Shown here piece by piece: positions 3,884 to 53,757 of a stretch of 64,000 bases of DNA. The notes below the pieces were generated by a model. The model had not been told where the DNA came from. It did not search any database and saw only the letters and a program-made list of their open reading frames with translations. Source of the stretch: Anaerolineales bacterium. Its GTDB lineage: Bacteria; Chloroflexota; Anaerolineae; Anaerolineales; Villigracilaceae. The stretch's first letter is position 1. Each line of letters starts with the position of its first letter. The stretch is taken from positions 2,260,136 through 2,324,135 of the forward strand of contig CP129481.1 in the NCBI GenBank assembly GCA_030583905.1. Direction: 5' to 3'. The position numbers and the translations under genes are program-made.

Positions 3884-4030
3884 GCGCGGAAGTATATCAG
3901 CGCGGGCAGGGTTTGGGATGGAAAAGGCAGGTTCGAGTTAAGCGCGAAGCGGAAGGCTGGAAATCGGACCCTGTTTTGTGCTACAGTATAGATGCCTGAG
4001 ACCGCCATTCCCTCGGGCAGGAGCAATCTG

Positions 4031-4303
4031 ATGGAAGTGGAAGCAGGAAAGGTGACACACTATTATAGTCATCTCGGTGTGGCGGTATTGACGCTGACCG
4101 ACAGCCTGAAACTGGGGGACAAGATACACATCGTTGGATATTCGACGGATTTTACACAGCGCGTGACCTCCATGGAGGTCGAGCATCACAGCATTATTTG
4201 GGTGAAGCCCGGCGATGATGTGGCGGTGCGCGTCGTACAGCCGGTGCACGTGCATGACACGGTCTATCGGGTGGTGGAAGAGTCGCTGGAGCCGCTGCCG
4301 TAG
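4031..4303 (+). CDS. Small beta-barrel protein (elongation-factor-like / U32 peptidase C-terminal-like)
   Basis: GKVTHYY..LGVAVL.L...LKLGD.IHI.G..TDFTQ.V.SMEVEH pattern; RBS caggag before ATG 4031 (the track starts at 3992). Confidence 0.7.
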   Translation: MEVEAGKVTHYYSHLGVAVLTLTDSLKLGDKIHIVGYSTDFTQRVTSMEVEHHSIIWVKPGDDVAVRVVQPVHVHDTVYRVVEESLEPLP

Positions 4304-37023: not shown

Positions 37024-37153
37024 CAGGAGGGGGGTGGGAAGGCGGGACAGAGGGGCGCACACTGGCGCATGGGATGCGTTGCAGGATGGTGGAAATTCAT
37101 TAAAAGACGGGTTTTCACCGTATAATTGCGCCATCTAGATTATGAGGTGGGCT

Positions 37154-39910
37154 TTGCGCCGAATTAGTGAGGATACAACCCGCAAGGAAATGATCGACCC
37201 GCAGTTGGAAAGGGCGGGTTGGTATCTTGCTGACCATTCCAGGGTAAAGACCGAAATCCCTGTGGACGGCTACGATGCCGAGCCGTGGAATGGAATTTCG
37301 GATTACACGCTATACCGCGAAAATGGGGAAGTATTAGCGGTGGTCGAAGCCAAGAAGACATCGGTTGACGTCCGCCTGGCAGAAGCACAACTCACGCATT
37401 ATGTGACTGAAATTGAAAAACACCAGAGTTTCCGTCCGTTCGGCTTTTTAGCCAACGGACTGGAAATCCATTTTGTGGATGTAGGAGTTGCTCCCAAGCG
37501 GGAAGTGTTCGGATTCTTCACGCGCGAAGATTTGGAGAACCTGCTCTACATTCGTCAGAATGCGGTGCCGTTGAGTTCGGTTGAAATCAATAATCAAATT
37601 GTTGACCGTTCCTACCAGCACGAAGCCATCCGCCGCGTGGGCGAAGCCTTCGCCAATGGCAAGCGCAAAGCCCTGATCGTCATGGCGACAGGGACAGGCA
37701 AGACGCGTACCACAATGGGCTTGATAGATGTATTCATGCGGGCGGATCAGGCGAAGAAAATCTTATTCGTAGCGGACCGTGACGCACTCGTGGAACAAGC
37801 CATTGACGATGGTTTCCAAAAATATCTTCCAACGGAACCATGTACACGCTTGCACAGTTGGAAAGTGGAAACCAGCCAGCGCCTGTACGCGGTGACGTTG
37901 CAAACGCTGAGCAATATCTTCGAGCAGTTCTCGCCTGCCTTCTTTGACTTGATCGTCTTCGATGAAGTCCATCGCTCGATCTACAACAAATTCAACGAAG
38001 TGCTGGAGTATTTCGATGCCCGCCAGGTGGGATTGACCGCCACGCCCGCCAATTACATCAACCGCGACACCTTTCTTGCCTTCGATTGCACGGATGGCAA
38101 GCCGACCTATCTTTACACCTACGAACAAGCCATCGAAGACAAGTATCTCGTGGATTATGAACTCTACGCCGCGCGGACCAAGTTCCAGCGGCAGGGCATT
38201 CACGGCGTGGACTTAACCGAAGAGGAACGCAACGCCCTGATCGAAAAGGGACTTGACCCCGACGACATCAATTACGAAGGCACAGAACTGGAAAAGGAAG
38301 TCAGTAACCGCGATACGCTTCGTAAACAGTGGGAAGAGATTTGGGACGTGTGCCGAAAAGATTCGTCGGGACAATTGCCAGGCAAGACCATCGTCTTTGC
38401 GATGACACAAGACCACGCCTTGCGTTTGCAGGATGCGTTTTATGAGATGTATCCGCAATTCCCAGACTTGGCGAAGGTCATCACGCATAAATCGGAATAT
38501 CGCGGCACATTGGTGGAAGCGTTCAAGAAGAAGGATTTCCCGCGCATTGCTATTTCCGTGGACATGCTCGATACGGGCATTGATATTCCCGAAGCCGTCA
38601 ATCTGGTGTTCATGAAGCCTGTGCAATCGCCCATCAAGTTACAGCAGATGATCGGGCGCGGGACGCGCGTGCAGGCGGCGTGCAGAAATCTGGCGTTACT
38701 GCCGAACTTCGAGAAGAAGGATTTTCTCATCATTGACTTCTGGGAGAACAATTTCAGCAGGGATGCCAAGGAAGTCGTTGACCAATCTACGCCTGTGCTG
38801 GTGACGATCTTCAACACACGTTTGAAATTGTTGGAGACCTATCTCAAAGACCAGAAAGACCCCGATTGTAAGCAAGTGATCGCTGACCTGCGCGAGCAGA
38901 TTCAGGGCATCCCAACCGACTCGTTTACCATCCGCAAGCATATGCCAGAGATCGAAGAAGCATGGACAGATGCCTTCTGGGACTATCTCATCCCCAGCAA
39001 GATCGAATTCTTGAAATTGAAAGTCGCCCCGCACCTGCGACTCGTCCCTGGCGTGGACGTTGCTGCGGCGACCTTCATCAGCAAAGTGGAACGGTTGAAA
39101 CTACTCAAACGCACAGGCAGGGAAACCAGTGGAACGATTCAATCCATCGTAGAAGATGCCCAGAGTTTGCGCGATACGATTTTGTCTGACGCGGAAATCA
39201 AAGCCAAGAGCATGTGCGTTCCTGAAAAATTGGTGGAGTTCTCGAACAACGAATTGGACCTGCTTCGAGATGTGCTTTCACCGTGTATGAAGAACAAAAT
39301 ACGGTATGACTCTTTCCTGGAACTCGATCTACTGGATTCCATTGCGGTCAGCGGCTACATTTTGCTCACCAAGAGCGGAGAGAAAATGTACGTGGCGGAA
39401 TATCGCCGTTTGGTGGAAGAGCGCATTTTGCAATTGGTGGCGAACCACCCCACAATAAAGGCAATTCAAAACAGTTATGGTAGGGGCGAAGCATTGCTTC
39501 GCCCTTACATCGACGACTGGCAACTGCTCGAACTCGAACGCACACTGACCAAAGAACTCGGCGAAGGCGACCTGGAAGTGACGCCAGAAAACTTGAAGAA
39601 GGTTTTCGCTCACACCGCCGATAGTTTTCTCGGCTTGGTGCGCCAGGTGCTGGACATGCAGTACCTGCCCGATTACAAGGATTTGGTGGCGCGGCAGTTT
39701 GAAACCTATGTGACCCAACACAACTACAACGCTGACCAGATTCGCTTCTTGCGCGCGGTGCAAAGCGTGTTCTTGCAAAAGCGCCACCTCGAAACTGCCG
39801 ACCTATACGAGCCGCCGTTGGATATGTTTGGCGCGGACGCGGTGGAGCGGTGGTTTACGGAGAAGGAAGTGGAAGAAGTGGTTGAGTTTGCAAATAAGAT
39901 GGCGGTATAG
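37154..39910 (+). CDS. hsdR: Type I restriction endonuclease subunit R (EcoAI/EcoEI-like)
   Basis: Nuclease DY.L...AVVEAKK, MATGTGKT, DEVHRS, GLTATP, VDMLDTG.D, QMIGRGTR, EcoEI_R_C-like tail; TTG start after gaggtg (the track starts at 37142). Confidence 0.93.
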   Translation: MRRISEDTTRKEMIDPQLERAGWYLADHSRVKTEIPVDGYDAEPWNGISDYTLYRENGEVLAVVEAKKTSVDVRLAEAQLTHYVTEIEKHQSFRPFGFLANGLEIHFVDVGVAPKREVFGFFTREDLENLLYIRQNAVPLSSVEINNQIVDRSYQHEAIRRVGEAFANGKRKALIVMATGTGKTRTTMGLIDVFMRADQAKKILFVADRDALVEQAIDDGFQKYLPTEPCTRLHSWKVETSQRLYAVTLQTLSNIFEQFSPAFFDLIVFDEVHRSIYNKFNEVLEYFDARQVGLTATPANYINRDTFLAFDCTDGKPTYLYTYEQAIEDKYLVDYELYAARTKFQRQGIHGVDLTEEERNALIEKGLDPDDINYEGTELEKEVSNRDTLRKQWEEIWDVCRKDSSGQLPGKTIVFAMTQDHALRLQDAFYEMYPQFPDLAKVITHKSEYRGTLVEAFKKKDFPRIAISVDMLDTGIDIPEAVNLVFMKPVQSPIKLQQMIGRGTRVQAACRNLALLPNFEKKDFLIIDFWENNFSRDAKEVVDQSTPVLVTIFNTRLKLLETYLKDQKDPDCKQVIADLREQIQGIPTDSFTIRKHMPEIEEAWTDAFWDYLIPSKIEFLKLKVAPHLRLVPGVDVAAATFISKVERLKLLKRTGRETSGTIQSIVEDAQSLRDTILSDAEIKAKSMCVPEKLVEFSNNELDLLRDVLSPCMKNKIRYDSFLELDLLDSIAVSGYILLTKSGEKMYVAEYRRLVEERILQLVANHPTIKAIQNSYGRGEALLRPYIDDWQLLELERTLTKELGEGDLEVTPENLKKVFAHTADSFLGLVRQVLDMQYLPDYKDLVARQFETYVTQHNYNADQIRFLRAVQSVFLQKRHLETADLYEPPLDMFGADAVERWFTEKEVEEVVEFANKMAV

Positions 39911-39916
39911 ATTGCG

Positions 39917-42871
39917 ATGAAGAAAAAAGCCTTGCCCCTAACCCTTGTTCTCATTGGCGCAGCGTTATTGATAACGACTGTGGTCTTTTGGATTGATTCG
40001 AGCACAACCACCGAGCCGCAGAGTTTCGGGAAAACTTTACTCGACTGGGTAACACTCATTGCTGGGCTTGGGGCAAGTATCAAAGGTTGGATGGATTTAT
40101 TTAAGCCTGATAAACCAAAACCACCGACCACGAAAATTGAAGTGAAAGGCGAAAGATCGCAAGTTTCTACTGGCGATAATTCCCCAAATATTCAAACTGA
40201 GACTTACATCGGCACTCAGATTGTTCAACAACCATCAGAGCCAAAAACGCCAAGGTCTCTAAACCAATTACCTTCGCCACCTTTGGATTTTATTGGACGG
40301 GAAAAAGAATTAGCCCAACTTCGCCAGAACATTGAAAAAGGAGTGGTAATTTCAGGTGTTCAAGGTATGGGCGGAATTGGCAAAACTGCACTTGGTTTGA
40401 AACTCGCTGAACAAATTTCACCCAATTATCCAGATGGGCAAATATATCTTGACTTGCGCGGCGCGCATGAGCAGACACCACTTACACCTGAACAAGTTAT
40501 GGCGCACCTGATTCGGAGTTTTCACCCTGAAACCGCTTTACCGCTTGATTTTGGGGAATTAGGCGCAATGTATCGATCTGTGCTAAGCGGTAAGAAAGCA
40601 TTGCTTTTTTACGATAATGCACGTGACGAAAAACAGTTGGATTCATTGTTGCCCCCCAGAGGGTGTACTTTATTTGTCACTTCACGTCAGTACTTTACCT
40701 TGCCTGGACTTGTGGCAATTGACCTGGAGACTCTAGACTCCAAAGACGCAGTTGAATTGGTACAAGAAATATCGTCAAGAGTTAATAATAAAGACGCTGA
40801 AACGCTTGCGAAACTATGCGGTTACCTGCCGCTGGCGATTCGCGCGGCTGTGAGCGTTTTGCCCAGAAGACCCGATTGGTCTCCCACCGAATTGATAAAA
40901 CGGCTGAGTGATAGCAGGGCAAGATTGGGGCTGGTTGAAAGTTCGCTGAGTTTAAGTTACGACGCCCTTGATTCCGAATTACAAAAATATCTGCGCCAAC
41001 TTGGAGTGTTTGCTGCACCCTTTGACAAAGCAGCAATTCTGGCGGTGTGGTTTGATGAAAGAGATTTGCGCTTGCGACAATTAGGGTTGACATTAAGCTC
41101 ATCATCAGGCACAGATGATGAAATTGTCAATAAAAAATCGCCCGAACGGGAAGCAGATGATATTCTCGGTGAGTTATTAAAGACCAGCCTGTTGAAATAC
41201 GATCAAAACACAAATGAATATTATTTTCATGACCTGACACATATATTTCTTGAGGAAAAGGTTCGGCAAGACGAAAATTCTGATGATGTTTTATGGCGAT
41301 ATGCACAGCACTATTTGAAACTTGCAAGCCAGGCTGATGACGATTATCGAAAAGGCGAAGGACAATATCTTGTTGCTATTGCCCGTTTTCGACAATTGTG
41401 GTTACATGTCAATAAAATATCTGAAAGATTATCAATCGAATCAAATTGGAAAAAGCCAATTTCGGCTGAACGATGGTTGGAAAGATCTGCTTACACAGTT
41501 AGTGAAATGCTCACTATTGGCTTAACGCCAAATAACTATATCTCTTATGTCCAACGGAGTCTTAACGCTTCAAGACGAAACAAAAACCAAGAAGTAGAAA
41601 GTTACAATTTGAATAAACTGGGTCTCGCCTACTCCGCCTTGGGGGATGCGCGCAAAGCGATTGAGTACTACGAGCAGGCGCTTGCCATTGCCCGCGACAT
41701 CGGCGATAGAAAGAGCGAAGGCGGTATTCTTGGCAACGTGGGTCTCGCCTACTCCGCCTTGGGGGATGCGCGCAAAGCGATTGAGTACTACGAGCAGGCG
41801 CTTGCCATTGCCCGCGACATCGGCGATAGAAAAACGGAAGGAATGTTTCTTGGCAACGTGGGTCTCGCCTACTCCGCCTTGGGGGATGCGCGCAAAGCGA
41901 TTGAGTACTACGAGCAGGCGCTTGCCATTGCCCGCGACATCGGCGATAGAAAGAGCGAAGGCGGTATTCTTGGCAACGTGGGTGGAGCCTACTCCGCCTT
42001 GGGGGATGCGCGCAAAGCGATTGAGTACTACGAGCAGGCGCTTGCCATTGCCCGCGACATCGGCGATAGAAAAACGGAAGGAATGTTTCTTGGCAACGTG
42101 GGTCTCGCCTACTCCGCCTTGGGGGATGCGCGCAAAGCGATTGAGTACTACGAGCAGGCGCTTGCCATTGCCCGCGACATCGGCGATAGAAAAACGGAAG
42201 GAATGTTTCTTGGCAACGTGGGTGGAGCCTACTCCGCCTTGGGGGATGCGCGCAAAGCGATTGAGTACTACGAGCAGGCGCTTGCCATTGCCCGCGACAT
42301 CGGCGATAGAAAGAGCGAAGGCGGTATTCTTGGCAACGTGGGTGGAGCCTACTCCGCCTTGGGGGATGCGCGCAAAGCGATTGAGTACTACGAGCAGGCG
42401 CTTGCCATTGCCCGCGACATCGGCGATAGACGAAGTGAGAGTTTTTTTGTCAGTAATTTAGGGGCAATAAATCGAACACTTGGTAATCTTGATATTGCTT
42501 TGGATTTTCTAAAACAAGGTCTGGAGATTTCAAAAGAGGTTGGTGATAGGCACGGGGAAGGTGCAGATTGGGATAATCTTGCCAACGTTTATGCTGATAA
42601 GCAGGATTATGAGAATGCGCTCATTGCCTACAAAAATGCTATGGACATCTCTAGAGAAGTTGGCGATCCATCTCTGGAAGCCAATATCGCCTGGAACGTT
42701 GCTACAATTTACTATGAAAAAGAACAGTATGAAATGGCATGTAAATATATGCAAATCACGGTTGACTTTGAGAATAAGATAAATCATCCAAATGCAAATA
42801 CAGACTTGGAAGCCTTGAATAAGGTACGCGCTAAAATTCAGAATATAACCAAGCCCGAGGAACTGAATTAA
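39917..42871 (+). CDS. NB-ARC/STAND NTPase with N-terminal hydrophobic helices and C-terminal TPR array (NLR-like)
   Basis: FIGREKEL, GMGGIGKT, LLFYDNA, LFVTSR, CGYLPLAI, SL.LSY..L, MHD-like FHDL; 40-aa TPR repeats. Confidence 0.9.
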   Translation: MKKKALPLTLVLIGAALLITTVVFWIDSSTTTEPQSFGKTLLDWVTLIAGLGASIKGWMDLFKPDKPKPPTTKIEVKGERSQVSTGDNSPNIQTETYIGTQIVQQPSEPKTPRSLNQLPSPPLDFIGREKELAQLRQNIEKGVVISGVQGMGGIGKTALGLKLAEQISPNYPDGQIYLDLRGAHEQTPLTPEQVMAHLIRSFHPETALPLDFGELGAMYRSVLSGKKALLFYDNARDEKQLDSLLPPRGCTLFVTSRQYFTLPGLVAIDLETLDSKDAVELVQEISSRVNNKDAETLAKLCGYLPLAIRAAVSVLPRRPDWSPTELIKRLSDSRARLGLVESSLSLSYDALDSELQKYLRQLGVFAAPFDKAAILAVWFDERDLRLRQLGLTLSSSSGTDDEIVNKKSPEREADDILGELLKTSLLKYDQNTNEYYFHDLTHIFLEEKVRQDENSDDVLWRYAQHYLKLASQADDDYRKGEGQYLVAIARFRQLWLHVNKISERLSIESNWKKPISAERWLERSAYTVSEMLTIGLTPNNYISYVQRSLNASRRNKNQEVESYNLNKLGLAYSALGDARKAIEYYEQALAIARDIGDRKSEGGILGNVGLAYSALGDARKAIEYYEQALAIARDIGDRKTEGMFLGNVGLAYSALGDARKAIEYYEQALAIARDIGDRKSEGGILGNVGGAYSALGDARKAIEYYEQALAIARDIGDRKTEGMFLGNVGLAYSALGDARKAIEYYEQALAIARDIGDRKTEGMFLGNVGGAYSALGDARKAIEYYEQALAIARDIGDRKSEGGILGNVGGAYSALGDARKAIEYYEQALAIARDIGDRRSESFFVSNLGAINRTLGNLDIALDFLKQGLEISKEVGDRHGEGADWDNLANVYADKQDYENALIAYKNAMDISREVGDPSLEANIAWNVATIYYEKEQYEMACKYMQITVDFENKINHPNANTDLEALNKVRAKIQNITKPEELN
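41621..42430 (+). repeat. 120-bp tandem repeat x7 encoding TPRs
   Basis: Lines at 41641, 41761, 41881, 42001, 42121, 42241 and 42361 are identical; variation is confined to two sites. Confidence 0.97.
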
Positions 42872-44670
42872 TGCTCACCGACCCTAAACTCCGCAGCCAA
42901 GTAGACGCCCTCTGGGATAAGTTCTGGACGGGTGGATTGACGAACCCGCTCGATGCGATCGAGCAGTTTTCGTATTTGTTGTTCCTCAAGCGGTTGGATG
43001 ACCGCGAGAACGCGGCGGAAAGACAGGCAAAACGCAAGGGGACGACGTATCAGCCCAACGTTAAGAAAGAGATGCGTTGGAGCGTCTGGAAGCAGATGAA
43101 GGCGGAAGAGATGCTCAAGCATCTTAAGTCGGTCGTCTTCCCGCAGTTGGCGAGTCTCACTGATGAAGCATCATCATTTGGTATCTACATGCGCGGGGCG
43201 GAGTGCAAGATCAATAAGCCGAGTCTGCTGGTGGAGGCGGTGAACCTGATCGACCAGATGGAGATCAGCCAGCAAAATCAGGATGTGCAGGGCGACCTGT
43301 TCGAGTACCTGCTGAGTCATTTGAGCATCGCCGGGCGCAATGGACAGTTCCGCACGCCGCGTCACATCATCCGCATGATGGTGCAGATGCTCGACCCCAA
43401 GCCGCGTGAACGCATCGGCGACCTGGCGGCGGGCACGGGCGGATTTTTGATCAACGCGCACCAGTATATTTTGGAGAAGGCGACGTCGAAGAACATCCTT
43501 GAATTCGATGCGGACGGCAGCGCACATCATCTGATCGGCGACCTGCTGAAGGATGACGAGCGCAAGTTCATGAATAGCAAAAAATATCTGCGCGGCTTCG
43601 ACAACGACTCAGGCATGACCATGCTGCGCATCGGCTCGATGAACCTGATGTTGCACGGCATTCAGGAGCCGCAGTTCTTTTACATGGACACGCTCTCCAA
43701 GGGCTATGGGGAGGTGGGCGAGTACGATGTCATTTTGATGAACCCGCCCTTCAAAGGCGCGGTGGACAAAGGCGACGTGCATCCCGACCTGCCCAGCGAT
43801 ACGACCAAGAGCGAGTTGCTCTTTTTGCATTTGATTTTGCGCGCGCTCGATATGGGCGGACGCGCGGCGGTGATCGTGCCCGATGGCGTGCTGTTCGGGT
43901 CGAGCCGCGCCCATGTGGAACTGCGCAAACGCCTCATCGAAGAGAATCGGCTGGACGGCGTGGTCTCGATGCCTTCGGGCGTCTTCAAGCCCTACGCGGG
44001 CGTCAGCACGGCGGTGCTGTTCTTCACGCGCGGCGCACAGACGAAAAACATTTGGTTCTATGACATGGCGCACGATGGTTTTTCGCTGGATGATAAGCGG
44101 ACAAAAGTGGATGAGAACGACATCCCCGATATTTTGGATTGTTGGAAGAAGCGGGGGGATAAGAAGTTCATAGAGAGTAGAGAACAGAGAATCGTGGAGT
44201 TGCGGAAGGAGTTGACTCCGTTGAAGGAAAAGAGATTGAAGTTGCAAGCGGAAGTCAACCGCCTCACGTTCGAACTGGCAATTGCCCCTGTTTCTGACGG
44301 CTCTTCTGCCCCGCAACCTGTCACCGCAGAGACGCGGAGCGACGCAGAGAAAACCAAAGAAAAACTCGGCGCTCTCGGCGTCTCCGCGGTCAATGCTCTT
44401 GCTGATGCGCAAGAACAACTCTCTACTCTCCAATCTCTACTCTCTTCTCCGCAAGGGGAACTCGACCGCCTGACCCGCCAATTCTGGGTGACCAAGGAGC
44501 AGGTCAAGGCGAACAAGTACGATCTCTCTGCCAGCCGTTACCGCCAAGTGGAAGCGGACGCGGCGTATCACGAACAGCCGTCTGTGACGCTGGAACGTTT
44601 GGCGCGGTTGGAGAGTGTGATGTTGGATGAAATTGCGGAATTGAAGAAAACGATGAAGGCTGAAGGATGA
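42871..44670 (+). CDS. hsdM: Type I R-M methyltransferase subunit M
   Basis: GQFRTPRHII, DLAAGTGGF (motif I), NPPF (motif IV), VPDGVLF, FKPYAGVST, YDLS..RY. Confidence 0.95.
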   Translation: MLTDPKLRSQVDALWDKFWTGGLTNPLDAIEQFSYLLFLKRLDDRENAAERQAKRKGTTYQPNVKKEMRWSVWKQMKAEEMLKHLKSVVFPQLASLTDEASSFGIYMRGAECKINKPSLLVEAVNLIDQMEISQQNQDVQGDLFEYLLSHLSIAGRNGQFRTPRHIIRMMVQMLDPKPRERIGDLAAGTGGFLINAHQYILEKATSKNILEFDADGSAHHLIGDLLKDDERKFMNSKKYLRGFDNDSGMTMLRIGSMNLMLHGIQEPQFFYMDTLSKGYGEVGEYDVILMNPPFKGAVDKGDVHPDLPSDTTKSELLFLHLILRALDMGGRAAVIVPDGVLFGSSRAHVELRKRLIEENRLDGVVSMPSGVFKPYAGVSTAVLFFTRGAQTKNIWFYDMAHDGFSLDDKRTKVDENDIPDILDCWKKRGDKKFIESREQRIVELRKELTPLKEKRLKLQAEVNRLTFELAIAPVSDGSSAPQPVTAETRSDAEKTKEKLGALGVSAVNALADAQEQLSTLQSLLSSPQGELDRLTRQFWVTKEQVKANKYDLSASRYRQVEADAAYHEQPSVTLERLARLESVMLDEIAELKKTMKAEG

Positions 44671-45857
44671 ATATGAATCAGCCATTCGTTGAGTTGCAAG
44701 AAGTTTGTCGGTTTATCAGCGGCGGAACGCCAAGCACAAAAGTTCCTGAATATTTCATGGGAACGATTCCTTGGATTACTGGCGCAGATATGAACGGCAA
44801 CGTGATAACTAAAGCGCGACAATACATTACCGAAGAAGCAATTCAGAACTCGGCAACAAATATTGTTCCAAAAGGAAATATCTTGCTTGTCACTCGCACT
44901 GGTGTTGGCAAAGTTGCCATTGCTGGTGTTGATATTTGCATAAGCCAAGATTTTACGGGATTGGAACTCGACAAAACAAAAGTAGATGAATGGTTCTTGC
45001 TCTATTATTTGCGCTCTCAAGAAGAAGCCCTTACTTCTCAACAGCGTGGTGCGACCATTCAAGGAATTACAAGAGATGTAGTTGAAACTCTAAAACTTCC
45101 CCTGCCCCCGCTGACCGAGCAAAAGCGGATTGCGTCCCTACTGGCGCGGGCTGACCGTCTCCGCTCCCTGCGGCGGACAGCGCACGATCTCGGCGAGTCC
45201 CTGCTCCAGTCCGTGTTTTTGGAGATGTTTGGGGATGAACAAAAGCAAAACTATGTAACGATTCAAGAGTTGATGGACTCAGAAGTCATTATTGATATGC
45301 AAGACGGAAATCATGGTGGTGACTATCCAAGAACATCAGAATTTGTTTCTGAAGGCATACCATTTCTAACTGCAACTAATGTAATTGGCAACCGAGTTTT
45401 TCTTGACGCTGCTCCTAGATTGAAACCAGAAAGAGCGCATAAATTACGAATTGGTTGGGTAAAGCCAAATGATGTTTTGCTGTCTCATAACGCTACAGTT
45501 GGACGTGTTGCTATCATGCCATACTTTGAAGGCGAAGTTGTACTTGGCACATCATTAACTTATTACAGATTAAATCCTGAAATTCTTTTACCCCGATATT
45601 TTTCTGGTCTTTTGCAGTCAAGGCATTTTCAATCCCAACTTGAAAGTTTTATGGGGCAAACAACGCGCAATCAAGTTCCAATAACTCGCCAAAGGGAATT
45701 GTTTGTTCCTGTTCCGCCACCGCTGAATCTGCAAGAAGAGTTTGCGGGCATGGTGGCGCGGGTCGAGTCGCTGCGGGGGAGGATGTCCGAGGCGGGGAGG
45801 CAGGTCGAGGGGTTGTTTGAGAGTCTGTTGGCGAAGAGCTTCGGAGGAGGAAGGTAA
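44667..45857 (+). CDS. hsdS: Type I R-M specificity subunit S
   Basis: TRD1 (GGTPST..PEYF.G.IPWI), central PLPPLTEQKRI, TRD2, terminal PPPLNLQEEF...LFESLL. Confidence 0.93.
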   Translation: MNMNQPFVELQEVCRFISGGTPSTKVPEYFMGTIPWITGADMNGNVITKARQYITEEAIQNSATNIVPKGNILLVTRTGVGKVAIAGVDICISQDFTGLELDKTKVDEWFLLYYLRSQEEALTSQQRGATIQGITRDVVETLKLPLPPLTEQKRIASLLARADRLRSLRRTAHDLGESLLQSVFLEMFGDEQKQNYVTIQELMDSEVIIDMQDGNHGGDYPRTSEFVSEGIPFLTATNVIGNRVFLDAAPRLKPERAHKLRIGWVKPNDVLLSHNATVGRVAIMPYFEGEVVLGTSLTYYRLNPEILLPRYFSGLLQSRHFQSQLESFMGQTTRNQVPITRQRELFVPVPPPLNLQEEFAGMVARVESLRGRMSEAGRQVEGLFESLLAKSFGGGR

Positions 45858-45860
45858 AGA

Positions 45861-46976
45861 ATGCCATTCGAAACTGCTCGTGTCGCGTTGTTAGGTGAGT
45901 TAGCTGTCGTAATCTCTGGATATTCGCCAAAACCAAGCGAAAGACAAAGGGTTGGAAAATATCTATTACTAGGTGGACGAAATATTGGTGATAGAAGGAT
46001 ATCTTTAACTGTCAAAGATTCTTATATTGAAGATGTAGATAAAGTCAGTTTTCGAAGCGCTATAGCCCGAGCAGGTGATATTATCGTTTCAACACTTTTT
46101 AAAGATCGAAAAATTTATTTTTTCAGAGAAAGTGACCTACCATCTGTAGTCAATAATAGCTGCAAAATAATTAGAGCAACAGCGAACAATGATTATATTC
46201 TGTCATATTTGAGAACTGAGAAAGGACAAAAACAATTTCTTTCGGATGCAGATAATACTGCTAAGGGAGCCTTGATTCCATTCATATCCACAAAAGATAT
46301 TCTAAATATTGAAATACCAATCTTGCCTTTTGAAGAACTACAGCATTTGGGTGATAGCTACATTCAAAATGCTACTTTAGATGATTTGGTTGTAATTCGT
46401 GATGAACTCAAGAGCAAAGAGAAAGAAGTGGCAGTACTTCAAAGTAGACTGACTGATATAACGACTTATTACGAAGACAGATTAAAGAAAGTAGAAACGC
46501 GAATAACAAATTTAGAGTCTATTCCAATAGTTGAGAGACCATTAAAAGTGTTTTTATGCCATTCAAGTTCAGATAAGCCTTATGTTAGGAATCTATATGA
46601 AAATTTAACCGAATTACCAAATGTTGATCCTTGGTTGGATGAAAAAAAACTCTTACCAGGTGATGATTGGCAATTGGAAATCGAAAATGCAGTAAGAACA
46701 TCTGACGTTGTTCTTGTGTGTCTATCCAAAATGTCAACAACCAAAGAGGGATTTGTTCAAAAAGAAATAAAATACGCTTTGGATGTTGCTGAAGAAAAAC
46801 CACCAGGCACCATCTTCATTGTCCCCTTGAAAATAGAAGAATGCTTAGTTCCCAAACGACTTAACCAATTTCAATGGCTTGATTATTTTGCTGATGATGC
46901 AAATGAAAAGCTACTCAAATCTCTTGAAAAACGTGCTCGAACATTGGGAATTGAGTTTAGATATGAAAGCAGATAA
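45861..46976 (+). CDS. HsdS-like TRD fused via a coiled coil to a C-terminal TIR domain
   Basis: N-terminal LGEL..ISG..P...RNI...GDIIVS...DYILSYL...GALIPFIS.KDI.NIEIP..P; C-terminal KVFLCHSSSDK..V..LY..L...DPWLD..KLLPG.DW..EI..AVR.SDVV.VCLS......GFVQKEI. Confidence 0.85.
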   Translation: MPFETARVALLGELAVVISGYSPKPSERQRVGKYLLLGGRNIGDRRISLTVKDSYIEDVDKVSFRSAIARAGDIIVSTLFKDRKIYFFRESDLPSVVNNSCKIIRATANNDYILSYLRTEKGQKQFLSDADNTAKGALIPFISTKDILNIEIPILPFEELQHLGDSYIQNATLDDLVVIRDELKSKEKEVAVLQSRLTDITTYYEDRLKKVETRITNLESIPIVERPLKVFLCHSSSDKPYVRNLYENLTELPNVDPWLDEKKLLPGDDWQLEIENAVRTSDVVLVCLSKMSTTKEGFVQKEIKYALDVAEEKPPGTIFIVPLKIEECLVPKRLNQFQWLDYFADDANEKLLKSLEKRARTLGIEFRYESR

Positions 46977-47152
46977 TCTTTTTGTATTTATTTACCATAC
47001 TCTGCAAGAAGAGTTTGCGGGTGTGGTAGCACGGTCGAGTCGCTACGTGGGCGGATGTCCGAGGGCGGGAAGCAGGTCAAGAGGTTGTTTGAGTCCCTGC
47101 TGGCGGAGTGTTTTGGAATAACATAATTGTCGTAACTATATAGGAGGCTGAA

Positions 47153-48028
47153 ATGAGTATTTTTGATTTCATCGGTAATTTATTTTTTATCCTGTTGGGA
47201 ACAATTTTTCAATTATTCGTGGAAAAATTCAAAGGTAAGCAGAAATTTGTTAGTTGGTTATCCTTTGTACTTATAAGTGTTGGGATGTTTTGGCTCGGAT
47301 TGGAAATAGGCACAAAAGGTTCTTTTGAACTCGTTAGTGATAGTGGACGGAAAAACGTTGAGATTTCTGTACCAATGACAAATTGGGATGTAAACGGTGA
47401 GACCATAGGAAATTCAATTTTAGGCAACAACTCTCATCACGGGGAATTTGAATTATCTTCTGTTCAAGCGGAAAATTCTTACACAAGACCTGAGCAACAG
47501 TTGATATATTCTTGGGATTCCTTAGGCGCCTTTATTGAGCTAAATGGGATGCCCTTGCGTGGAGTTCAGTCTGTTATTTCAATCTTCCCCGTAGAAACAA
47601 AGTACTATGCTGAAAAAGTGTTTTGTCACTATACAGCAAAATATGATGGACGATATTACTCAAGTGTTGAACAGTATATCCCTTTTCGTCAGCCTGTAAT
47701 TATGATCTGGGACTTTACTGGAAGTGTTGACCCATCTGCTTTTGACATAACAGAAGAAGATCGAGCTTATCTAGAAAATTCAATTGACCTCCTTCATCAA
47801 AAAGGCTCAAGTTTTACTTATTATACGAGAAGACTTAGAGAACTTTGGCAATGGCAGGAATTAGTTGCAAACAGTTATGACCCAAACACAGTAGAGAAAC
47901 TTATTGTCACCTGTAATACTTCAGCAACAAAAGAATATCGTGGTGGCAATACAGGTGATCGATTTGTGTTCAGAGGTGAGTTTAATTTCGGTGACGTTAT
48001 AGTTTATCCGTATGAACAAGTAAAATGA
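47153..48028 (+). CDS. Hypothetical protein with two N-terminal TM segments
   Basis: AT-rich 291-aa ORF, RBS aggagg, lies between hsdS-tail copies. Confidence 0.75.
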   Translation: MSIFDFIGNLFFILLGTIFQLFVEKFKGKQKFVSWLSFVLISVGMFWLGLEIGTKGSFELVSDSGRKNVEISVPMTNWDVNGETIGNSILGNNSHHGEFELSSVQAENSYTRPEQQLIYSWDSLGAFIELNGMPLRGVQSVISIFPVETKYYAEKVFCHYTAKYDGRYYSSVEQYIPFRQPVIMIWDFTGSVDPSAFDITEEDRAYLENSIDLLHQKGSSFTYYTRRLRELWQWQELVANSYDPNTVEKLIVTCNTSATKEYRGGNTGDRFVFRGEFNFGDVIVYPYEQVK

Positions 48029-48369
48029 AGTCCTTCTTACAAGAAGAGTTTATGTGTACGGTGGCGCGAGACGAGTCGCTGCGGGGCGGATGTCCGAGGG
48101 CGAGAGGCAGGCGCCGTGTCGAGTTCATCGAGACATCGAGGGGTTGTTTGAGTCCCTGCTGACGCAATCTTTTGACGGTAGACGATGGATGACGGAAAAC
48201 TACTCTCTACTCTCGAATATCTAATCTCTGCTCTTGCGGGCGTGGTGGCGACCGAAGGGAGTGTCGAGTCGCTGCGAGGGAGGATGGGCGAGTCCACGAG
48301 GCAGGTCGAGGGGTTGTTTGAGTCATTGCTGAGTGAGAGTTTTGGAACATAAAAACAAAGGAGAAAATC

Positions 48370-48666
48370 ATGTCTGCTGAACATTTTGAAGCACTGGAAG
48401 CCGTTTATGAGGAAGTCATTGACTCCATGCCAGATACATTTGACGCGCATGAGTTTATTCTGAAACTCGCGCAAAGGCATCAACGCCTTTATGTTCAAGC
48501 TCTCATTGAATATGCCGAAAGTGAAAGACCATTTCAGATTGCTCATGGGCAAATCGCACAACGTTTACGCAATTTTCCAAATCTCGTTGCTTATGATGGA
48601 GAACACAATAGTAAGGATATTTTTCTCCAAGTTAACTCTGCATCGCTATGGCGCAAGGTAAGATAG
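48370..48666 (+). CDS. Hypothetical 98-aa protein
   Basis: RBS aaggag; lies between hsdS-tail copies. Confidence 0.75.
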   Translation: MSAEHFEALEAVYEEVIDSMPDTFDAHEFILKLAQRHQRLYVQALIEYAESERPFQIAHGQIAQRLRNFPNLVAYDGEHNSKDIFLQVNSASLWRKVR

Positions 48667-48851
48667 CGATTATGCAGGATGAGTTTGCGGGCGTGGTGGC
48701 GACCGAAGGGAGTGTCGAGTCCCTGCGGGGGAGGAATAGCATCCCCTTTGGGGACTCGGCGTTTGAGCCTCGCGAGGCGAGGAGGCAGGTGGAGAATCTT
48801 TTCGAGTCATTACTTGCTCAATCATTTGCAGCAGGATAAGGAGTTGAGAAC

Positions 48852-49163
48852 ATGCAAGTCTACATAAATTATCCCAATCCACACTTTACAATTCACAAGA
48901 ATTCTTCCTGTCCGCAAATCCATATACACCAAAAGAGCGGGCAACGGATCGTAAAAGTCAATCCGGTAACTTTGAAGAATGTTCTCAGTCAATTTATCAA
49001 TGATGCCTACGATTTCAAATCCGAAGCGCAATGGAATGATTTGTGGTTGGATGTGTCGTTGTCCACGTATGAGCAGGAAATTGGATTCGTTCATGTAATT
49101 CAAGCATTAATTGGTCAGCGATACAAACCGCTTGGAAATGCGCCGATAAGTGACCATTGCTAA
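48852..49163 (+). CDS. Hypothetical 103-aa protein
   Basis: RBS aaggag; AT-rich; lies between hsdS-tail copies; Cys/His residues near both ends. Confidence 0.72.
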   Translation: MQVYINYPNPHFTIHKNSSCPQIHIHQKSGQRIVKVNPVTLKNVLSQFINDAYDFKSEAQWNDLWLDVSLSTYEQEIGFVHVIQALIGQRYKPLGNAPISDHC

Positions 49164-49250
49164 TGCAAGTCGTGTCGACTGCCCGATAGGGCGTGTCGAG
49201 ACATCGAGGGGCTGTTTGAGAGTCTGCTGGCGGAGGCGTTTGAGCAATAA

Positions 49251-51045: not shown

Positions 51046-51378
51046 GAGGTGGGCTGTTGCGCCGAATTAGTGAGGATACAATCCGCAAGCGGATGATCGA
51101 CCCGCAGTTGGAAAGGACGGGTTGGTATTTGCGCGACTTCTCAAATGGGGAAATTATTGGGTGGTAATTTTATGATTACATTGTTCAGTACGATAACCCT
51201 TGTTAGTTTCGCTTCCTGTGCGCCGTGCCAAGTATGTTCTTGCAGAAGCGCCATCTCGAGACCACCGACTTATACGAACCGCTCTTGGACATGTTTGGCA
51301 CGGATGCAGCGGCGCGGTGTTTTACGGAGAAGGGGTGTAAGAAATGGTGGAGTTTGCTAACCGATTGGCGATTCAATA
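51046..51378 (+). pseudogene. hsdR: Internally deleted hsdR remnant (5' about 90 bp joined to 3' about 200 bp)
   Basis: 51046-51130 matches 37144-37225 (GCGCCGAATTAGTGAGGATACA...ATGATCGACCCGCAGTTGGAAAGG); 51207-51370 matches 39743-39905 with frameshifts. Confidence 0.88.
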
Positions 51379-51429: not shown

Positions 51430-53043
51430 ATGAATGGCAAAATTAGCTTCATTCCAAATGCAGATTTGGGCAGATATCTTCAATCCCTTGACTCTGTGCG
51501 ATTCCTTGAATCAAATGAGATTGCTTGTAATGTCCAAGCAAAATTAGAAATTTTTACGTCTTTGATGTTAGGTAGAACTATCCCTGTCGGTGAGCACCAG
51601 TTCATTGATTCGTACGGGCTTCTGTCGAATGCGTATCACATGATTAAAGCCTTAGATAAGTTGCCAAAAACAGATCGCTCCCAAATTGAACATATATTTC
51701 CTTTTCAACTTTATTTCCGAGGCGAATATAAGACCATAGATGGTTTGATTGCCGCAAAACTGGGCGACCCTAATTACAAACTTTCTTTGTGGCGTTATTT
51801 AAGCAAACCTGATGACCAAAAAATGCTAGATAATCGCCAAAAGATAAAGGCAAAAGTGGAAGATGGTACTTTTAAGTACGAGGATGACGATCTCGTGCCA
51901 AACAAAGATTATGATGCAGCAAAAATGCTTCACAAAGTTCGAAATCACTTCTTTCACGGCGAAAGAGAGCAAATCTACACACTCTACGGTTCTAAGACAA
52001 TTGGGATTGCACCTTACATTGGGCTTCTTGAAGCAGGAATTTCGAGGATTAGTAATCTGACTAGAAAGGATTTGAACAGTCAGATTAAACATCAAGCAAA
52101 GCTAATGGATAAGGGAATAATTGCCACAGAGATACTCGATCCTAAGTTAAAAGAAATAGCCGTTGAACTAATCATGATTCTGAGGCAACTAAAGAAACTT
52201 GGATTGATGACGGGAAATCGCTCTAATATCCGAATCGGTAATGCGAGAATTAGGTCACGGGGGAAAGAAAAAATTCAAAAGTTCAGAGAGATTGTAAACA
52301 ATGATCTAATGTATGACGCCATACTTGAAATTTTTGATTTGCTTTACAATAGTTCAATTGCTAAATCGTGTTTTGCACATAGCGAAAGTGTTTCATCAGC
52401 TCGGAGTATTACTGATAATCATTATGTCCAAGCGGCAATAGCACTTTCTACAATGGCAAAAAACGAGATTACCGATCAGGCAGACTTGAAAGGGAATTAC
52501 TTTAACCCGCCCTGGATACAAGATTTTACGTTCAACCTAAACGTGCCTTCCGAGGCAAAACTTATGCTTGATTCTATGCCATGGGAGCGTGTTTGGGAGG
52601 CGTTTTTGGATACAAAATGGCGAGATACTGTTTCTAATTTAAACGGTATTCTCTTGAAATGGGACAAATTTATCAATGACCCAACTACATCTGAACAAGA
52701 ATATATGGATGTGACCTACGAGTTGGATTATGCTTACGATGCACATATAGACAATATAAGCAGGATTCTTAAAGAGTCAGGGTGGAATTTTGTTAAAAAC
52801 CAGAAAACCAACCAAACCATAATTAAGTTTTTACCTTGGGTAGGTGGGTTAGCTACTAAGGCAGTAGCAAAGATTGCTCTTGATCGCGTTGGCATAGATC
52901 CATTTTGGGAGGAAACAATACCAGATTCAATTGGTACCGCAACGGGAATTGGCATAAATAAAACTATCGAACCTGTTGGCAAATGGATAACTAAAGGTTA
53001 CATTAGAAAGACATTTGCCCGCTTGGTTTTGCCAGAAAAATAA
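51430..53043 (+). CDS. Hypothetical 537-aa protein
   Basis: Long AT-rich ORF with RBS aaggag; no family recognised. Confidence 0.85.
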   Translation: MNGKISFIPNADLGRYLQSLDSVRFLESNEIACNVQAKLEIFTSLMLGRTIPVGEHQFIDSYGLLSNAYHMIKALDKLPKTDRSQIEHIFPFQLYFRGEYKTIDGLIAAKLGDPNYKLSLWRYLSKPDDQKMLDNRQKIKAKVEDGTFKYEDDDLVPNKDYDAAKMLHKVRNHFFHGEREQIYTLYGSKTIGIAPYIGLLEAGISRISNLTRKDLNSQIKHQAKLMDKGIIATEILDPKLKEIAVELIMILRQLKKLGLMTGNRSNIRIGNARIRSRGKEKIQKFREIVNNDLMYDAILEIFDLLYNSSIAKSCFAHSESVSSARSITDNHYVQAAIALSTMAKNEITDQADLKGNYFNPPWIQDFTFNLNVPSEAKLMLDSMPWERVWEAFLDTKWRDTVSNLNGILLKWDKFINDPTTSEQEYMDVTYELDYAYDAHIDNISRILKESGWNFVKNQKTNQTIIKFLPWVGGLATKAVAKIALDRVGIDPFWEETIPDSIGTATGIGINKTIEPVGKWITKGYIRKTFARLVLPEK

Positions 53044-53079: not shown

Positions 53080-53757
53080 ATGAATTACTATGAGCTGCTT
53101 AGCAAATTCCCAAATCTTATCGGCGATAATGATGCCTTAATAAAGATCGTGCAAGAACCTGATGCTATCAAGGACTGGCAAGAACAGCGCCAAAAAGAAC
53201 TTGCCAGTAAAAACCTTCCGCAAAATTGGGCTGATATTGGTGTCGTATTTCATGATCCGTATTTTTTCGTTGTCCGTGACTTGGTTCAATTTCCTAATGG
53301 ACGTTTGAATGGTTATTGTCGTGTTCTAAGTGAAGCTAATCTGAGCGGAGGGCATGGGGCGGTTGTTTTGCCTGAATACGAAGGTAAAGTAATGTTGTTA
53401 CACCAGTATCGCCATCCAACGCGTAAATGGCACTATGAAGTTCCGCGTGGATATGGCGAATTGAACACTCCTGCTGAAGAAAATGCCCGAAAGGAAGTTG
53501 AAGAAGAAACAGGTGGAACAATTGAAAAGCTTGTGAATTTAGGGGAGTTCTATAATAATACTGGTTTTGAGGGTGGAGCGGTTTCGTTGTTTTATGCCAA
53601 GTTGTCATCCATAGGCCAGCCAAACGAAGATGAAGGCATTGAGTCCTTCGTCTGGCTCACTGTCAAAGAACTCGAAGAATGGATAGCCAACGAGAAGATC
53701 ACCGATGGCTTTACCATTGCCGCGTACACCAAAGCCAAACTCAAAGGATTGATCTAG
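53080..53757 (+). CDS. NUDIX hydrolase (ADP-ribose pyrophosphatase-like) with N-terminal extension
   Basis: HQYRHP..KW.YEVPRG, NUDIX box GYGE...AEENARKEVEEETG, I.DGFTIAA. Confidence 0.9.
   Translation: MNYYELLSKFPNLIGDNDALIKIVQEPDAIKDWQEQRQKELASKNLPQNWADIGVVFHDPYFFVVRDLVQFPNGRLNGYCRVLSEANLSGGHGAVVLPEYEGKVMLLHQYRHPTRKWHYEVPRGYGELNTPAEENARKEVEEETGGTIEKLVNLGEFYNNTGFEGGAVSLFYAKLSSIGQPNEDEGIESFVWLTVKELEEWIANEKITDGFTIAAYTKAKLKGLI

Follow-up and report, generated by a model that had tools for sequence, protein, structure and literature searches.

A single TRD-helix module joined to a TIR domain behind a type I hsdS gene: a rare member of an apparently undescribed restriction-derived sensor-effector family

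Domain searches, structure prediction and sequence comparison revealed that the gene located at 45861..46976 (+ strand; 371 aa) encodes a target recognition domain (TRD), a long helix and a TIR domain in a single chain, and that it is a rare TIR variant of an apparently undescribed sensor-effector family derived from restriction-modification (R-M) systems. Our working interpretation, to which we assign a probability of roughly 0.4, is that the protein would combine a dimeric, half-S-like, DNA-engaging sensor with a TIR NADase and form an abortive second layer of defence beside type I restriction; we infer that members of the family dimerise, bind DNA, act as NADases and protect against phages. 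All positions given below refer to the window, i.e. the entire 64,000-nt stretch of DNA analysed.

The gene is the first cassette of an array described below. Its ATG lies 3 nt downstream of hsdS, the stop codon of which is at 45857, and is preceded, inside the end of hsdS, by the GGAGG-rich stretch GGAGGAGGAAGG, likely its ribosome-binding site. The TRD covers aa 1-165 (45861..46355, +), the long helix, presumed to form a dimerising coiled coil, aa 157-219 (46329..46517, +), and the TIR domain aa 230-349 (46548..46907, +), with the codon of the presumed catalytic glutamate, E302, at 46764..46766 (+). PADLOC Specificity_I models matched aa ~5-199 with E-values down to 5e-8, and the protein was not reached by Methylase_S in the Pfam search. 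A first AF2 model of the full-length protein gave only the helix and the TIR domain with confidence, the TRD being unusable (shallow alignment), and a second one, of aa 1-225 and based on 78 homologous sequences, reached a pLDDT of 89.8 (~90 over the TRD). In Foldseek searches the latter model matched best the Esub1 structures 8VSR/8VSQ (E 2e-11) and also the PacII S subunit, HsdS structures 5YBB, 3OKG and 1YF2, EcoR124I and EcoKI, the E-values for Esub1, PacII S, 5YBB, 3OKG and 1YF2 spanning 2e-11 to 3e-7. Helices were predicted by AF2 at aa 157-170 and 173-219, the long helix being the equivalent of an HsdS conserved region. The protein thus has one TRD and one helix, not the HsdS layout of two TRDs and two conserved regions, and its N-terminal 220 residues correspond, as judged from sequence and model, to half a specificity subunit.

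The C-terminal half was assigned to Pfam TIR_2 (aa 230-349; E 6.4e-25, 88.5 bits versus a cut-off of 28), and its model matched best SPARTA TIR-APAZ, AbTir and MyD88 in Foldseek. E302, the glutamate of FVQKEI, aligned with residue 77 of SPARTA TIR-APAZ, mutated in the catalytic mutant E77A (PMC9097488), and with the PdTIR motif WPQKEL; it is kept in all aligned homologues, in which the TIR core motifs are conserved as well. Membership in Thoeris was not indicated, with ThsB_TIR scoring 17 bits (below the cut-off of 21.2), NCBIfam ThcB4 scoring 17 bits against 220 needed, and no Thoeris match among the nine proteins scanned between 37142 and 53043. The preliminary description, which had read from the letters a TRD-like N-terminus, a helix and a TIR domain with the FVQKEI glutamate 3 bp after hsdS, was correct in every detail: the TRD fold was borne out by the Specificity_I, Esub1 and HsdS matches, and the TIR domain with its presumed catalytic residue by Pfam, Foldseek and the alignment of E302 with E77.

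The N-terminal ~215 aa (up to YYEDRLKKVE) proved to be 45-60% identical to proteins of ~375 aa in which an SLFN_AlbA_2 domain takes the place of TIR at the identical junction point. Of the 120 clusters listed as best, 64 consist of such TRD-helix-SLFN_AlbA_2 proteins; the TRD-helix module also occurs on its own, in proteins of ~210-245 aa. Over 78 aligned sequences the module has 23 invariant columns, and the window gene conforms to the common order of motifs (GGRN, STLF, VVNNSC.IIR, DYI.SYL, IPILP..L..LGD and YYEDR, followed by the effector domain). Ordinary TRDs, in marked contrast, are hypervariable. Conservation of this kind is unexpected in a TRD that tells self from non-self DNA, and may point to a protein, or to HsdM, as the ligand. 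Hosts of the TRD-helix-SLFN_AlbA_2 proteins include Bryobacterales, Thermodesulfobacteriota, Verrucomicrobiota and others; one member carries the NCBI label 'RNA-binding domain-containing protein', and the literature searched yielded no description of TRD-TIR or TRD-SLFN proteins. An exhaustive search of representatives at 50% identity retrieved 240 clusters, 91 of them at E<1e-10, and a domain census of 83 representatives gave N6_Mtase in 41, SLFN_AlbA_2 in 17, HSDR_N_2 in two, and Abi_2 and a Tle1-like lipase in one each, TIR being limited among the 50%-identity representatives to the window's own cluster. No relatives of the module were found in plasmid and phage collections, and a scan of species-representative genomes returned eight loci only, none from the host lineage.

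The distant relatives are single-chain N6_Mtase-TRD-helix-effector proteins, with N6_Mtase at the N-terminus. Four of them (P0123, P0126, P0128 and P0149) end in SLFN_AlbA_2, and in three others (P0131, P0132 and P0145) the N6_Mtase-TRD-helix part is followed by a domain with the RNKxAHP motif, conserved at the end of several members of ~750-870 aa. The C-terminal domain of these three proteins had no Pfam match and is putatively HEPN-like, a call based on the RNKxAHP motif together with the single Abi_2 match of the census; a 2013 HEPN survey stated that no fusions to methylases occur among the HEPN domains linked to R-M systems (PMC3710099). Regular-expression searches of the fused methyltransferase domains in 58 long representatives found motif I mostly kept; a candidate motif IV was recognised in 26 of them, with one canonical form (DPPF) and ~11 having N/D at the first position. 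A split-off methyltransferase as a conserved upstream partner of the TRD-AlbA_2 genes was considered and rejected, the upstream ORFs at L002, L014 and L015 being mutually unrelated and not methyltransferase-like. Proteins of the same TIR clade (55-65% identity) carry the TIR domain behind various other modules, among them BglII-type endonuclease folds, CSD, MarR and FtsZ, and since both the TIR clade and the TRD-helix have other partners, both halves of the window protein are modules re-used elsewhere. The proteins with a BglII-type fold (P0077, P0084 and P0104, 63-65% identity; P0111, 44%) represent a second R-M-derived DNA-recognition module joined to this TIR clade. The domains that follow the TRD-helix module are effectors of kinds typical of abortive infection; SLFN domains of prokaryotes have been described as immune nucleases that cut tRNA (PMC13462974). 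The exchangeability of SLFN_AlbA_2, Abi_2 and putative HEPN domains fits a sensor-effector logic.

The fusion itself is rare, although not the singleton without homologues that would have spoken against it: three full-length relatives, with 95, 80 and 75% identity, were found among 5.8 billion proteins, and DNA copies of the gene occur in contigs L003, L076 and L052 (3' end only) and in run X8. The dN/dS values were 0.137 versus L003 and 0.134 versus L076, with dS up to ~1.0, and ranged from 0.10 to 0.22 when TRD, helix and TIR were taken separately; each of the three parts is under purifying selection. An accidental, decaying fusion devoid of function is consequently barely credible, given a dN/dS of 0.13 over such distances, constraint on every part and full-length orthologues at 75-95% identity, even though the neighbours of the gene are degenerate hsdS fragments and the copy in L076 departs from it beyond aa 334, where that contig ends. 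The host is an Anaerolineales bacterium (Chloroflexota), its MutS being 99% identical to that of a MAG from this order and 86% to that of Ca. Villigracilis. The window sequence was found in sludge metagenomes, and two sludge metatranscriptomes each contained one contig, at ≥99% identity and a depth of ~2, over positions 46227-46498, a 270-nt stretch comprising the end of the TRD and the helix. Within 42800-48100 these were the only contigs at ≥99% identity; the other RNA contigs were short ones on the hsdS 3' end at 45791-45833, none mapping elsewhere on hsdM or hsdS. The contigs at 46227-46498 weakly suggest expression of the TRD-TIR gene and could also represent DNA carry-over, sampling noise or a stable RNA fragment.

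The genes around the fusion make up a full type I system, consisting of hsdR (37142..39910, +; Pfam ResIII, HSDR_N and EcoEI_R_C; PADLOC REase_I 2.7e-116), hsdM (42871..44670, +; Pfam N6_Mtase 1e-52 and HsdM_N; PADLOC MTase_I 4.7e-160) and a full-size hsdS with two TRDs and two conserved regions (44667..45857, +; Pfam Methylase_S twice; PADLOC Specificity_I 1.6e-58). Between hsdR and hsdM, 6 nt after the former and overlapping the start of the latter, lies a gene for a membrane-anchored NB-ARC/TPR (STAND-type) protein (39917..42871, +; Pfam/PADLOC), in which 6.8 tandem TPR units of 120 nt with 94% identity (41619-42430) suggest a recent expansion. Farther downstream, an hsdR remnant (51057-51360; 82% nucleotide identity to the 3' end of the live hsdR) joins aa 5-33 to aa ~841-912 through an internal deletion, and a remnant with the identical deletion occurs in contig L070 (~3966-4168). 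Just behind the window's remnant are a low-GC ORF of 537 aa without family assignment (51430-53043) and a gene for a NUDIX hydrolase (53080-53757).

The terminal ~130 nt of hsdS (CR2; LQEEFAGMVARVESLRGRMSEAGRQVEGLFESLLAKSFGGGR; 45725..45857, +), coding for LQEEFAG…FESLLAKSFGG, are the master copy of a repeat from which an array extends (45725-49250), formed by short, co-oriented, low-GC ORFs between decaying direct copies. Behind the TRD-TIR gene follow, all on the + strand, CR2 remnant 2 (47003..47120; 82% to CR2, frameshifted), cassette 2 (47153..48028; an ORF of 291 aa with N-terminal membrane helices and no family match), remnants 3 (48038..48178) and 4 (48232..48350), a 98-aa ORF (48370..48666) with a related ORF in the L048 array, remnant 5 (48673..48838), a 103-aa ORF (48852..49163) with copies 83-88% identical at the nucleotide level in L086, L055 and L017, and the partial remnant 6 (49190..49250). 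The segment 45721-47034 is 93.6% identical in L003, where both neighbours are different; there, as in L076, the TRD-TIR gene follows only a CR2 remnant, with an identical TAA-AGA-ATG junction. Compared with window positions 44464-47117, X8, which represents a related strain, has the same hsdS frame with a replaced TRD2 (476 nt between 45237 and 45717), the same CR2 and TRD-TIR cassette and then a different cassette, the similarity stopping at the end of CR2 copy 2, a pattern that shows both TRD swapping and cassette swapping at one locus.

An exact-pattern scan of metagenome contigs yielded 72 loci, of which 67 were matched by a CR2 profile. Between two and 13 copies, always in one orientation, are present in 49 of these 67 contigs, with a median spacing of 571 nt and an interval GC of 0.43, and the longest ORF lies on the strand of the repeat in 86 of the 91 longer intervals. 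In contigs that extend upstream of the array, an intact hsdS of ~350-396 aa, preceded by hsdM, ends in the first copy, and the ORFs that end in later copies do not exceed 131 aa. The 91 cassettes group into 53 families, 17 of which recur in different arrays and in different orders; the arrays lie in loci L017-L087, in particular L048 with 13 repeats, L085, L086, L064, L056 and L032. Their contents include NUDIX, DUF559, DUF5615/PIN, ParE, pentapeptide and KaiC-like proteins, another TIR protein and many unknowns; NUDIX cassettes recur at L048 (3192-3641 and 11428-11877) and L085 (6496-7032).

These hsdS-anchored cassette arrays, hitherto unreported, resemble sedentary chromosomal integrons in their short, co-oriented, promoterless, low-GC ORFs, in repeats of ~120 nt and in the reordering of cassettes between genomes; they differ from them in using a piece of coding sequence, the 3' end of hsdS, as the repeat in place of a hairpin attC. 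An integron reading was rejected, the single strands of the repeats folding no better than shuffled sequences (z +0.2 to -1.8), and no integrase gene was present among the ORFs listed for four annotated arrays. Breakpoints occur at varying places inside CR2, which, together with the lack of an attC-like fold, suggests that cassettes are exchanged at the 3' end of hsdS by homologous recombination and not by a site-specific mechanism. CR2-CR2 joints in DNA-run contigs were discarded as evidence of excision, as assembler contigs break and join at repeats. A scan for promoters and terminators gave no enrichment over shuffled sequences, so that co-transcription with hsd is deduced from the layout, the promoterless TRD-TIR cassette being presumably placed for read-through from the hsd operon.

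The array also bears on what the position of the gene can tell. The 3-bp linkage to hsdS does not speak for coupling to restriction: the cassette platform places each unit behind a copy of the hsdS 3' end, which accounts for the tight linkage in the window, and in L003 and L076 the TRD-TIR gene has only a remnant before it. The gene might accordingly be a passenger cassette with no relation to restriction, for instance an addiction-type toxin or a regulator that binds DNA and carries a TIR domain for signalling or without catalytic activity, its place behind hsdS merely resulting from recombination at the repeat. The array does explain the position, and most of the other cassettes contain genes that are unrelated, do not belong to defence or are unknown (PADLOC defence models matched three of 51); this explanation is nevertheless rather improbable, given that the catalytic glutamate and the TIR core motifs are conserved and that TRD-helix relatives outside the lineage are R-M-linked in the absence of CR2 repeats. 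Genes for the TRD-helix module adjoin type I R-M genes in seven of nine contexts outside the window (L001, L002, L011, L012, L013, L014 and L015), or eight of ten counting the window, the two exceptions, L004 and L007, having no R-M genes within 10 kb. No CR2-type repeats were found at the TRD-AlbA_2 loci of other phyla, and the family-wide association with R-M is therefore independent of the cassette platform. Order and orientation relative to the R-M genes are variable, some family genes being convergent to them or at least 10 kb away, and the adjacency could be mere clustering in defence islands.

As to the partners with which the module might work, sharing of specificity with the neighbouring HsdS was dismissed, with TRD identities of ≤29% and weak E-values, and the helix showed no sequence similarity to CR1 or CR2 of the local HsdS. 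The helix is ~50% identical across hosts whose HsdM proteins share just 29-43%, an observation that makes family-specific docking on HsdM less likely. Truncated, half-size HsdS proteins such as those of EcoDXXI and EcoR124I are known to form dimers and to work with HsdM. By this precedent the window protein could be an effector-bearing alternative S subunit: two copies with two HsdM would form a methyltransferase marking a palindromic self site, and unmethylated sites on incoming DNA would fire TIR in place of HsdR, giving restriction by NAD+ depletion. The single-chain N6_Mtase-TRD-helix-effector relatives would be its fused equivalent, and the TRD-TIR gene is positioned for co-expression with hsdM. 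We give this possibility low credence, as the module co-varies neither with HsdM nor with the local conserved regions, its TRD is conserved, whereas the specificity of an R-M reader would be expected to diversify, and many fused relatives have no canonical catalytic motif in the regular-expression search.

Few back-up layers that fire on restriction failure are known (PrrC, Ronin and PARIS), and most of them were chance discoveries. In PrrC-EcoprrI and Ronin (RonA with HsdMS), as at the window locus, a toxic effector is genetically tied to type I hsd genes, and firing when restriction is countered has been proposed or shown for them (PMC3710099; bioRxiv 10.1101/2023.04.06.535777). Their effectors are separate proteins (an ABC-HEPN anticodon nuclease and a 61-aa membrane peptide, respectively) masked by a complete HsdMS, whereas the window protein unites an S-like part and its effector, a TIR domain, in one chain; the genetic linkage typical of PrrC and Ronin is present 3 bp after hsdS, although the cassette array explains it. 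With these two systems as precedents, the half-S dimer might act as a guard or decoy, docked on HsdM or mimicking the DNA groove of a methyltransferase and silent until a DNA-mimic anti-restriction protein of the Ocr/ArdA type, or the loss of HsdM, frees or clusters the TIR domains. Such a mechanism agrees with the R-M linkage of the TRD-helix family, with a conserved TRD, which would suit an unvarying ligand, for example a DNA mimic, and with the candidate motif IV of the fused N6_Mtase domains, mostly non-canonical in the regular-expression search, which would fit a pseudo-enzyme decoy. It remains unlikely, though deserving some weight, in view of a helix unlike the local HsdS conserved regions, the lack of co-variation with the HsdM family, the family genes that are convergent to R-M genes or at least 10 kb off, and the unclear binding of HsdM by Esub1 (PMC11754733).

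Esub1 (SpyM3_0890) of Streptococcus pyogenes (PDB 8VSQ/8VSR), a half-HsdS homodimer formed via helices (PMC11754733), is the best match to aa 1-200 in both sequence and fold, at an identity of ~18-19%. Like the N-terminal part of the window protein, it has one TRD-like head and one C-terminal helix, half of an S subunit; unlike the window protein, it has no effector domain, no linkage to R-M and no known function. The TRD-helix-SLFN_AlbA_2 proteins share with the window gene the N-terminal module, the junction and the type I R-M neighbourhood, and differ in carrying a Schlafen-type (RNase-like) domain for TIR and in lying outside CR2 arrays. Finally, SPARTA (short pAgo/TIR-APAZ) provides the closest solved TIR structures, with a catalytic glutamate aligned with E302, and in it the TIR domains oligomerise and deplete NAD+ once nucleic acid is recognised; its sensor is a guide-loaded Argonaute and not a TRD, and it has no link to R-M.

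Among DNA, a DNA mimic and HsdM as possible triggers, we slightly favour an autonomous DNA-engaging dimer, because the TRD and helix are unlike the local HsdS, the module does not co-vary with HsdM and HsdM binding by Esub1 is not clear. By analogy with truncated HsdS and with Esub1 as seen in its crystal structure, two copies of the protein would pair via the helix into an S-like dimer with two identical DNA-reading heads. The antiparallel helix pair would place the two C-terminal TIR domains at opposite ends, apart from each other and inactive. Engagement of a ligand by the TRD pair, for which a DNA site or DNA feature on nucleic acid entering the cell is the likeliest candidate, would gather several dimers and allow the TIR domains to self-associate, an activation that may be likened to the oligomerisation-gated NADase of SPARTA; in the clustered TIR domains E302 would hydrolyse NAD+, and the infected cell would be stopped. 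The sensor-effector back-up layer proposed in the preliminary description thus retains support from the architecture, the selection on all its parts, the R-M-linked module and the exchangeable effectors, and has lost that of the 3-bp linkage and of any similarity to the local HsdS.

A broader and speculative proposal, which we hold to be improbable, is that TRD-helix-effectors are effector-bearing specificity subunits spread by an integrase-free platform at the hsdS 3' end. Together with HsdM or with their own fused methyltransferase they would read a DNA site, and an unmodified or mimic-occupied state of that site would fire TIR, SLFN or HEPN-like domains, resulting in a nuclease-free, restriction-like immunity; the coding 3' end of hsdS would serve as recombination site and the hsd operon as promoter.

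The TRD-helix-effector proteins make up a whole family in which a DNA-reading part of R-M systems is covalently joined to interchangeable suicide domains, and they offer a direct handle on the re-use of R-M parts as infection sensors. The window protein is a candidate for a compact TRD-guided NADase that may be re-targetable. The hsdS-tail arrays suggest that accessory genes can be stockpiled and shuffled without a dedicated integrase and, if confirmed, would widen the concept of the cassette platform beyond integrons.
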